A model generated the notes under the pieces. It ran no database searches, had not been told where the DNA came from, and saw only the letters and a program-made list of their open reading frames with translations. Below are positions 36,516 to 44,149 of a DNA stretch of 60,486 bases, one piece after another. The stretch comes from an uncultured Candidatus Saccharibacteria bacterium (GTDB lineage Bacteria > Patescibacteriota > WWE3 > 2-01-FULL-39-13). The stretch spans positions 32,482 to 92,967 of the forward strand of contig CAZEDS010000002.1 in NCBI GenBank assembly GCA_964510925.1, written 5' to 3'. How positions within the stretch are numbered: position 1 is the stretch's first letter; each line of letters begins with the position of its first letter. A program made the translations under genes and the position numbers.

Positions 36516-36583
36516 TGGCTATCCAAGTTGGACTTGAACCACCGACACTCCCGATTAAAAATCGGGATGCTCTAACCACTGAG
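36516..36583 (-). pseudogene. 5'-truncated degenerate tRNA-Lys(UUU) copy
   Basis: CTCAGTGGTTAGAGCATCCCGATTTTTAATCGGGAGTGTCGGTGGTTCAAGTCCAACTTGGATAGCCA; lacks the 5' acceptor strand. Confidence 0.75.
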
Positions 36584-36604
36584 TATATTTGTGAATTTAA
36601 AAAA

Positions 36605-36680
36605 TGGTGATCCAGGGTGGACTTGAACCACCGACACCCTGCTTAAAAGGCAGGTGCTCTAACCACTGAGCTACTGGACC
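36605..36680 (-). tRNA. trnK: tRNA-Lys(UUU)
   Basis: 76 nt; acceptor GGTCCAG/CTGGATC, anticodon arm CCTGC-CTTTTAA-GCAGG, GTTCAAG T-loop, encoded CCA. Confidence 0.95.
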
Positions 36681-36681
36681 A

Positions 36682-36930
36682 TTAATAAGGTCTTTCGATT
36701 AGCTTTTGAATATATTTGTGGCTTTTATAACGCTTGATTTCCTTTTCACGTTTTAGTGCCAACGACTTTGTTTCAAAAGTTTCGAAATATATTAAATCTA
36801 CAGGCAATATAGAGCTAGTATACTTCGATCTTCCATGTTTGTGGCGGTTTATTCGATCTTCTAGATTCGATGTGTATCCGATATAGAATTTGTCGAACTT
36901 TTCACTTTTTAAAATATAAACGTAAAACAT
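36682..36930 (-). CDS. Small GIY-YIG nuclease
   Basis: YVYIL..KFYIGYTSNLEDRINRH..G.SKYT..ALKREKEIK; stop codon lies 1 nt before the tRNA. Confidence 0.9.
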   Translation of the reverse strand: MFYVYILKSEKFDKFYIGYTSNLEDRINRHKHGRSKYTSSILPVDLIYFETFETKSLALKREKEIKRYKSHKYIQKLIERPY

Positions 36931-36945
36931 TTATATTGCTAATTT

Positions 36946-37001
36946 ACCACCGACACTTCCGATTAAAAATCGGAATGCTCTAACCACTGAGCTACTGGAC
37001 C
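36946..37001 (-). pseudogene. 3'-truncated tRNA-Lys(UUU) copy
   Basis: GGTCCAGTAGCTCAGTGGTTAGAGCATTCCGATTTTTAATCGGAAGTGTCGGTGGT; stops at the T-loop. Confidence 0.8.
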
Positions 37002-37155
37002 AAAGATTTTGGCTGTTTTGAGCTTTAAGATGTGCTCGTAAAACAACCTGATAATGACTCTCATTATTATACATATAATGCGGGATTCACGGAAGCGGTT
37101 ATCCTACTATTCTTACCATTTATTGATCTCTTTGCTATAATGTCAGGCATAACTT

Positions 37156-43939: not shown

Positions 43940-44014
43940 GGCCCTATCGTCTATCGGTTAGGACAGCAGGTTTTCATCCTGTAAAGCGGGGTTCGATTCC
44001 CCGTAGGGTCACCA
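43940..44014 (+). tRNA. trnE: tRNA-Glu(UUC)
   Basis: 75 nt; acceptor GGCCCTA/TAGGGTC, anticodon arm GCAGG-TTTTCAT-CCTGT, GTTCGAT T-loop, encoded CCA. Confidence 0.95.
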
Positions 44015-44131: not shown

Positions 44132-44149
44132 TTCCCCGTAGGGTCACCA
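44132..44149 (+). repeat. 18-bp direct repeat of the tRNA-Glu 3' end (att-like)
   Basis: TTCCCCGTAGGGTCACCA, identical to 43997-44014. Confidence 0.85.

Follow-up and report, generated by a model that had tools for sequence, protein, structure and literature searches.

Why should a gene for an 82-aa nuclease lie among three copies, two of them partial, of the same lysine transfer RNA (tRNA) gene? The question is raised by a locus on the minus strand (positions 36516-37071) of a 60,486-nt stretch of DNA from an uncultured Candidatus Saccharibacteria bacterium (contig CAZEDS010000002.1); this whole stretch is called the window here. A first-pass annotation had read the locus as a selfish cassette of under 0.5 kb, made of a GIY-YIG nuclease and a tRNA, that had invaded a resident tRNA-Lys and supplied a replacement for it. 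In our view, it probably belongs, as one copy, to a widespread family of minimal cassettes living inside tRNA gene loci. Three traits mark these cassettes: a same-strand tRNA 0-60 nt from the nuclease gene, flanking partial copies of that tRNA, and a hairpin that replaces one arm of a partial copy. The window locus has all three, and so do dozens of loci elsewhere. The nesting and the compactness of the element were thus read correctly at first, and its patchy occurrence, a pair of filled and empty sites and its presence at more than 15 tRNA isotypes suit a selfish element; the direction of the proposed replacement was wrong.

The locus and the origin of its tRNA copies

Read along the minus strand, the locus opens with TATAAT (37071-37066), followed by a 56-nt 5' piece of tRNA-Lys (37001-36946) that covers tRNA positions 1-54 and stops in the T loop. 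A 15-nt linker (36945-36931) leads to the start codon of the nuclease gene (36930-36682), and an intact tRNA-Lys(UUU) (36680-36605) begins 1 nt past the stop codon, so that the nuclease open reading frame (ORF) is bordered by 15 nt of noncoding DNA on one side and 1 nt on the other. A 21-nt AT-rich spacer (36604-36584) then separates the intact tRNA from a 68-nt 3' piece (36583-36516; positions 11-76), which has no 5' acceptor strand and a decayed 3' end. This order agrees base for base with the one first described. With both pieces, the unit of nuclease and tRNA-Lys measures 486 bp; its core of 362 bp (linker, nuclease gene, tRNA-Lys and spacer) carries a 46-bp direct repeat on both sides.

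The intact copy, with its CCTGC/GCAGG anticodon stem, was called by ARAGORN, folds into a full cloverleaf and scores 73.1 bits against the Rfam tRNA model. It is the sole tRNA-Lys(UUU) among the 46 tRNA calls of this genome (892 kb in 45 contigs, 97% complete). The 5' piece, a partial match at 20.8 bits, and the 3' piece, at 23.9 bits, both fall under the Rfam gathering score of 29. Compared with the intact copy, the 5' piece is 100% identical at positions 1-26 and 44-54 (expectation value [E] 5e-11); in the 3' piece, the T stem and pair 1-72 are mismatched and four changes fall within the last 14 nt. Together, the pieces make up exactly one split pseudo-tRNA, patched with a hairpin. They share a 46-nt repeat spanning tRNA positions 11-54 (95.7% identity; E 3e-18 within the locus), and these repeats differ at just two positions, which pair with each other at the base of the hairpin stem (T-A in one repeat, C-G in the other), so that the change is compensatory.

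That hairpin stands in the place of the anticodon arm: TTCCGA-TTTTTAA-TCGGAA in the 5' piece (36975-36957) and TCCCGA-TTTTTAA-TCGGGA in the 3' piece (36567-36549). The first-pass annotation had recognized the shared (T/C)CCGA/TCGG(A/G) stem, which is indeed there, but had taken it for an anticodon stem. It had missed that the arm of the pieces, with a 6-bp stem and a 7-nt loop, is 19 nt long. The arm is noncanonical, since an anticodon arm needs 17 nt, as in the real tRNA, and the "UUU anticodon" of the pieces derives largely from the T-rich loop of the hairpin.

Similarly, the TATAAT is present where it had been reported, as a candidate -10 box seen in the letters of the sequence, but it is not among the promoters called by a consensus scan. 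It may be the original promoter of the tRNA. The promoter and terminator scan gave no terminator within the unit from the 5' piece through the nuclease gene to the tRNA. On the opposite (plus) strand, Rfam reports matches to "Plastid-ycf2 5'UTR" at 36607-36680 and 36521-36592 (30.4 and 19.7 bits, versus a gathering score of 65.7); these are a spurious echo of the tRNA-like fold.

Could such an arrangement be an artifact of assembly, or else the att-site scar of an island carried by an integrase? The assembly is fragmented, and assemblers can be misled by repeats of tRNAs; islands brought in by an integrase classically leave partial tRNA repeats, and an 18-nt repeat elsewhere in the window has the look of an att site. 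Misassembly is unlikely, however, because the 46-nt repeats are shorter than reads and the layout recurs in assemblies made independently (L003, L004 and others), among them complete genomes of isolates such as a Flavobacterium (L060). As to an island, the ORF list and a profile search gave no integrase-type ORF, whether tyrosine or serine recombinase, in or beside the 486 bp, and the repeat lies inside the tRNA, not at its 3' end as an att core would. We therefore regard both versions of this explanation as extremely unlikely.

The att-like repeat just mentioned belongs to tRNA-Glu(UUC) (43940-44014). The tRNA is followed by a terminator hairpin and, about 118 nt on, by an exact 18-nt repeat of its 3' end (CCCCGTAGGGTCACCA..., 44132-44149), with no ORF and no YCCG hairpin in between. 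Besides the Lys pieces, this is the only tRNA fragment in the whole genome, and it looks like an att-type scar or a decayed element.

Which of the three copies, then, is the host's? According to the first-pass annotation, the resident gene had the (T/C)CCGA stem and the cassette imported a possibly cleavage-resistant CCTGC replacement. Several features of the locus would suit that history. The pieces sum to one split tRNA-like gene around a core that holds the intact tRNA, the difference between the arms is fully compensated, and the pieces differ from one another by a compensatory pair, as two once-folded alleles would. Nevertheless, every one of the 12 family genomes, with a nuclease nearby or without one, has a tRNA-Lys(UUU) with the CCTGC/GCAGG stem, the outcome that the first-pass annotation itself had named as speaking against its reading, and an uninterrupted CCGA-stem tRNA-Lys, which was to be sought in relatives, was found in none: the CCCGA stem is absent from all tRNA-Lys(UUU) genes recovered from 40 relatives, the more distant of which have CCTGC, CCTGG, CCGGC or TCTGC. 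Moreover, the 19-nt arm with its 6-bp stem is no legal anticodon arm, and other phyla have the same hairpin, T-rich loop included, in pseudo-copies of their Val, Met, Arg, Ser and Asp tRNAs. Invasion of a resident CCGA-stem gene is therefore highly improbable.

The comparisons of sequence instead show that the intact CCTGC tRNA-Lys is the host type and that the (T/C)CCGA arms are hairpins of the cassette type. The intact copy is 88-97% identical to the tRNA-Lys of the 11 other family genomes. Its derived acceptor stem, GGTCCAG/CTGGATC, is shared with one of them only (G005), so that the intact copy is the type passed down vertically. The acceptor pair T3/A70, specific to this lineage and again shared with G005, is present in all three tRNA copies of the locus, suggesting that the duplication of the tRNA arose within this lineage or was homogenized there.

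Cassettes of the same design in other genomes

Homologues of the nuclease number from 0 to 10 per genome among the 40 relatives, and nearly all of the roughly 120 frames are open. In the window's own class, a same-strand tRNA lies 0-62 nt 3' of the stop codon at 15 of 31 nuclease loci. The first-pass annotation had suggested a survey of small GIY-YIG genes abutting tRNAs. Of 80 homologous loci taken from species-representative genomes, 58 lie within 260 nt of a tRNA on the same strand and none does so for the opposite strand, compared to a background density of 0.043 tRNAs per kb. These loci belong to Chitinophagaceae, Flavobacterium, Ignavibacteria, many Patescibacteria and some Clostridia. 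Cassettes of this design were recorded at more than 15 isotypes of tRNA, spread over several phyla, and partial tRNA copies flank the nuclease gene in most of the tRNA-linked loci.

Two layouts were seen. In Patescibacteria, as in the window, the order is mostly piece, nuclease, tRNA; in Bacteroidota and Ignavibacteriota it is mostly tRNA, terminator, nuclease, piece. In both, the pair of nuclease and tRNA is often enclosed by an outer 5' piece that starts at position 1 and an outer 3' piece that runs to position 75/76. Some Bacteroidota loci (L032, L092, L103 and L067) have, upstream of the intact tRNA, two or three 5' pieces (from 1-27 to 1-31) in tandem at intervals of 74-120 nt, and these look like a trail of repeated insertion or amplification at the same tRNA.

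Within the family, the cassette sits at tRNA-Lys in only 2 of the 12 genomes, that of the window (G000) and G008, and a genome of the same genus as G008 (G001) has the empty site. The native tRNA of G001 is preceded, at about 25 nt, by ATGAATGCTATAATATTTCGGTACTTTTA; in G008, this region, which contains a TATAAT, is found about 30 nt upstream of the 5' piece, and about 309 nt of extra DNA (the remainder of the piece and the nuclease gene) precede the intact tRNA. This pair of filled and empty sites is compatible with gain and with loss alike; for loss, a crossover in the 26-nt repeat would be enough to remove the cassette precisely.

The two filled sites differ in part. Outside the hairpin, the pieces match the tRNA of their own genome (GGTCCAG and the T stem GGTGG in G000; GGGCCAG and GAAGG in G008), whereas the hairpin and the nuclease are common to both. 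This suggests either that the cassette entered each lineage separately and was rebuilt on the local tRNA or that gene conversion keeps the copies alike.

A housekeeping role without mobility was also considered, in which tRNA operons simply happen to contain a UPF0213 gene and the tRNA pieces are what local duplication and decay have left. UPF0213 genes do occur in many genomes without obvious mobility, a second copy in the window's own genome is unlinked to any tRNA, and no recent transfer of the window copy is documented. Such an account has difficulty, however, with copy numbers that range from 0 to 10 among close relatives, with filled and empty sites inside one genus, with a hairpin patch that is nonrandom and conserved, and with a single design that recurs at so many isotypes and phyla and leaves cross-phylum clades in the protein tree. 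We find it very unlikely.

Some observations do weigh against the cassette being a mobile, tRNA-nested family. About a quarter of the homologues elsewhere have no tRNA nearby. The second GIY-YIG gene of the window's genome (C4:10807-11043; L002), a 115-aa open frame with 44% identity, has no tRNA, tRNA fragment or YCCG hairpin within 500 nt. For the window copy itself, the pattern of the 34-nt junction between flank and tRNA gave 0 hits in metagenome contigs, and the collections contain neither a near-identical copy (the best protein is 60% identical) nor an empty allele of the exact locus, so that its recent mobility is unproven. The association of the protein with particular isotypes, described below, is partly confounded with taxonomy. 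The protein has no DNA-binding domain, which makes sequence-specific homing of the Seg or I-TevI kind doubtful. Finally, the intact tRNA of the cassette looks like a naive target, and the classical immunity by which insertion destroys the target does not obviously apply; this is a difficulty that any homing model faces.

When 7 kb around the locus was compared in translation with the tRNA-Lys loci of the 11 other family genomes, only the tRNA matched, plus the cassette in G008, and no syntenic relative emerged.

The nuclease, the hairpin and how the cassette may work

The 82-aa protein matches PF01541 with 58.2 bits (cutoff, 22.6; E 1e-15), its residues 1-71 aligning with profile positions 1-74 of 78. 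Residues Y3, Y5, Y16, G18, H30 and E50 do not vary among 30 homologues, and conservation reaches 90% or more at R26 and E62; if I-TevI and UvrC are taken as guides, the catalytic positions would be the conserved Tyr/Tyr/Arg/His/Glu ones. An AlphaFold2 (AF2) model with a mean predicted local distance difference test (pLDDT) score of 88.7 has a three-stranded sheet and helices. Its top Foldseek matches are the UPF0213 protein 1zg2 and Slx1 (6seh; root mean square deviation, 2.3 Å over 71 columns), followed by the catalytic domain of I-TevI and the N-terminal domain of UvrC. Sequence searches of the PDB likewise returned UPF0213 proteins (1zg2, E 6e-7; 1ywl, E 2e-6), and matches to PHROG families of homing endonucleases were weak (E 4e-4 to 8e-3). 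The protein is a bare GIY-YIG catalytic domain of the UPF0213/Slx1 type, which fills all 82 residues and leaves no room for a DNA-binding domain.

In the protein tree, the window protein is sister to that of the tRNA-Lys cassette of G008, with 60% identity, and the tRNA isotype is clustered, requiring 44 changes versus 64.2 with shuffled labels (0 of 200 shuffles as low), with switches between isotypes evident. The nearest of 5.8 billion proteins is also 60% identical and is located at a tRNA-Arg(UCU) on a metagenome contig from ENA (L142). There, the end of the tRNA abuts the start codon, and a hairpin, TCCCGAttgaGTCGGGA, overlaps the nuclease stop codon, with the TGA in its loop, making this a cassette essentially without noncoding DNA.

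The hairpin is the other constant of these loci. With the form YCCG...CGGR, it takes over the position of an arm (anticodon, T or D) in pseudo-tRNAs of many isotypes and phyla, among them Val, Met, Arg, Ser, Asp and Ala tRNAs of Bacteroidota, Ignavibacteriota and other Patescibacteria. A tRNA-Val copy of Flavobacterium (L060 and L097), for example, has TTCCGATTTTTCATCGGAA, a tRNA-Met copy (L076) has TCCCGATGCATATCGGGA and a tRNA-Arg copy (L034) has TCCCGATTTTAATCGGGA; in tRNA-Asp copies of Ignavibacteria, TCCCGAATGAAATTCGGGA takes the place of the T arm. The motif occurs at 1.96 per kb within 200 nt of the GIY-YIG gene and at 0.10 per kb in the rest of the same loci, a 19-fold difference, and at least 16 loci have hairpins on both sides. 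It is not a repeat dispersed over the genome: the window's genome has only seven matches to the motif, two of which are the Lys pieces, and the others look like chance.

The two hairpin cores are separated by anything from 5 to 15 nt, as would be expected of a folded hairpin more than of a fixed binding site in duplex DNA. Because its sequence is conserved across phyla and its pairing is kept through compensatory changes, the hairpin is probably functional, a selected and folded structure. It may serve as a handle for the nuclease, as a mark that makes pseudo-copies uncuttable or less recombinogenic, or as an RNA element.

These patched copies also have a consequence for annotation. ARAGORN calls hairpin-patched copies of tRNA-Val and tRNA-Ser in Flavobacterium and other Bacteroidota (L060, L097, L054 and L061) tRNA-Lys(ttt), tRNA-Cys(aca) or tRNA-Pyl(cta). 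The cassettes thus probably give rise to spurious tRNA annotations, some of them as suppressor or pyrrolysine tRNAs.

How might such a unit work? In each cassette of the family, a GIY-YIG gene of about 80 aa lies beside an intact tRNA of the host type, the two enclosed by one or two partial copies of that tRNA, in each of which the conserved hairpin replaces one arm. The absence of a terminator between them, together with a tRNA that starts 1 nt after the stop codon, suggests a read-through transcript; the whole unit would probably be transcribed from the original tRNA promoter, through the 5' piece and the nuclease gene, and the working tRNA would be cut out of the joint transcript. Spread would most likely occur by break-stimulated homologous recombination, a homing-like copying in which the segments identical to the tRNA (1-26 and from 44 onward) could act as homology arms. 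The hairpin, the nuclease gene and the tRNA could be copied into a naive tRNA-Lys gene when that gene is broken or, more simply, when it recombines with DNA that has been taken up. Any related tRNA-Lys gene might then receive the cassette without loss of tRNA function, and such copying would reproduce exactly the split-piece layout that is seen.

A bolder idea, which we put forward tentatively and with considerable doubt, is that the nuclease and the YCCG hairpin make up a new kind of minimal mobile element, in which an Slx1-like enzyme would recognize folded DNA and not sequence. The folded targets would be the cloverleaf or cruciform of the tRNA gene and the element's own hairpin. If this were true, one tiny protein family could colonize almost any tRNA gene across phyla and always leave a working tRNA behind.

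As an alternative to homing-like copying, this idea can be given a specific mechanism with two parts. The nuclease would cut the folded tRNA gene and the hairpin, with staggered cuts near positions 10/11 and 54/55 whose fill-in creates the 46-bp duplication; the hairpins would then be functional ends or handles of the element and not a by-product. A bare catalytic domain, nearest in fold to UPF0213 and to the branched-DNA nuclease Slx1, would fit this mechanism. So would the hairpins, which are conserved across isotypes and phyla, have a core spacing that suits a folded form, and bracket the core at 16 loci or more. In addition, the 3' piece starts at the same C11 in the window's genome and in a tRNA-Lys cassette of G028 (L004), and arms are exchanged exactly at stem boundaries. 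On the other hand, the junction positions vary among loci, the hairpin could equally act as RNA, in processing or autoregulation, and the scheme is purely inferential, with no biochemical precedent among UPF0213 proteins. We judge this mechanism to be unlikely, and homing-like copying of a tRNA-nested cassette is the reading that we prefer.

If the cassettes are mobile, they would be among the smallest autonomous genetic elements of bacteria, at about 0.35-0.5 kb, and would follow a safe-harbor strategy, residing in a tRNA gene that is essential and present only once, of which they preserve an intact copy. They would also give the orphan UPF0213 nucleases their first biological context. More broadly, the cassettes would account for one common origin of pseudo-tRNA calls, such as those that ARAGORN makes as tRNA-Lys, tRNA-Cys and tRNA-Pyl, and the reshuffling of tRNA genes with their flanks in reduced genomes, those of candidate phyla radiation (CPR) bacteria for example, could proceed by way of them. 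A very small enzyme that targets tRNA genes by structure could possibly become a practical tool.

Comparison with known systems

The window locus is a new member of a widespread class of elements for which we found no published description. In the full-text literature that was searched, which leaves most subscription journals outside and hence gives no proof of novelty, neither tRNA-nested UPF0213 nucleases nor hairpin-patched pseudo-tRNAs are described. Several known systems nevertheless share some of the features of the cassettes.

Integrase islands and phages that insert in tRNA genes resemble the cassettes in their choice of site, in keeping a working tRNA and in leaving a partial repeat. 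They differ in that the cassette, 486 bp overall, encodes no integrase and has an internal repeat (11-54) containing a foreign hairpin in place of an att core from the 3' end.

Like I-TevI and the group I introns of bacterial tRNA genes, the cassette has a GIY-YIG gene in or next to an interrupted conserved gene, and the I-TevI domain is one of its fold matches. Unlike them, it has no ribozyme, and the interrupted copy is not rejoined by splicing; a separate intact tRNA works instead. A group I intron was looked for and rejected: Rfam searches at E values up to 1 gave only the tRNA and the spurious antisense matches, and TIGR01453 scored 16 bits versus a cutoff of 56.

For the protein alone, UPF0213 (BH0048 and EF2693; 1zg2 and 1ywl) and the Slx1 domain are the best matches in sequence and fold. 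All are single GIY-YIG domains of 80-100 aa with the Tyr/Tyr/Arg/His/Glu positions conserved, although Slx1 has an extra zinc finger domain and needs Slx4. No description of the function, tRNA linkage or mobility of UPF0213 proteins was found in the literature searched.

The closest described system is SegB of phages T4 and T6, a free-standing GIY-YIG homing endonuclease encoded in a cluster of tRNA genes, whose 27-bp site contains the conserved T-loop motif of tRNA genes (PMC2330249; PMC13096335). SegB promotes its own inheritance together with the flanking tRNA genes, and recombination yields duplicated segments consisting of the nuclease gene and a tRNA; when overexpressed, the full-length protein is toxic and a C-terminally truncated form is not (PMC2330249; PMC13096335). 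The cassettes also differ from this system. Seg-type enzymes join the nuclease to a DNA-binding domain that gives specificity, a feature that the 82-aa protein lacks. SegB is a phage protein and, at about 220 aa, much longer, whereas the cassette enzyme is a bare domain of the UPF0213/Slx1 type on a bacterial chromosome; hairpin-patched pseudo-tRNAs belong to the cassettes, none being described for SegB. Still, in both systems a GIY-YIG gene lies among tRNA genes and outside introns, and the 5' piece of the cassette ends in the T loop. The presence or absence of the gene at the same site in relatives, a further trait of the Seg type, is seen in the filled site of G008 and the empty site of G001.

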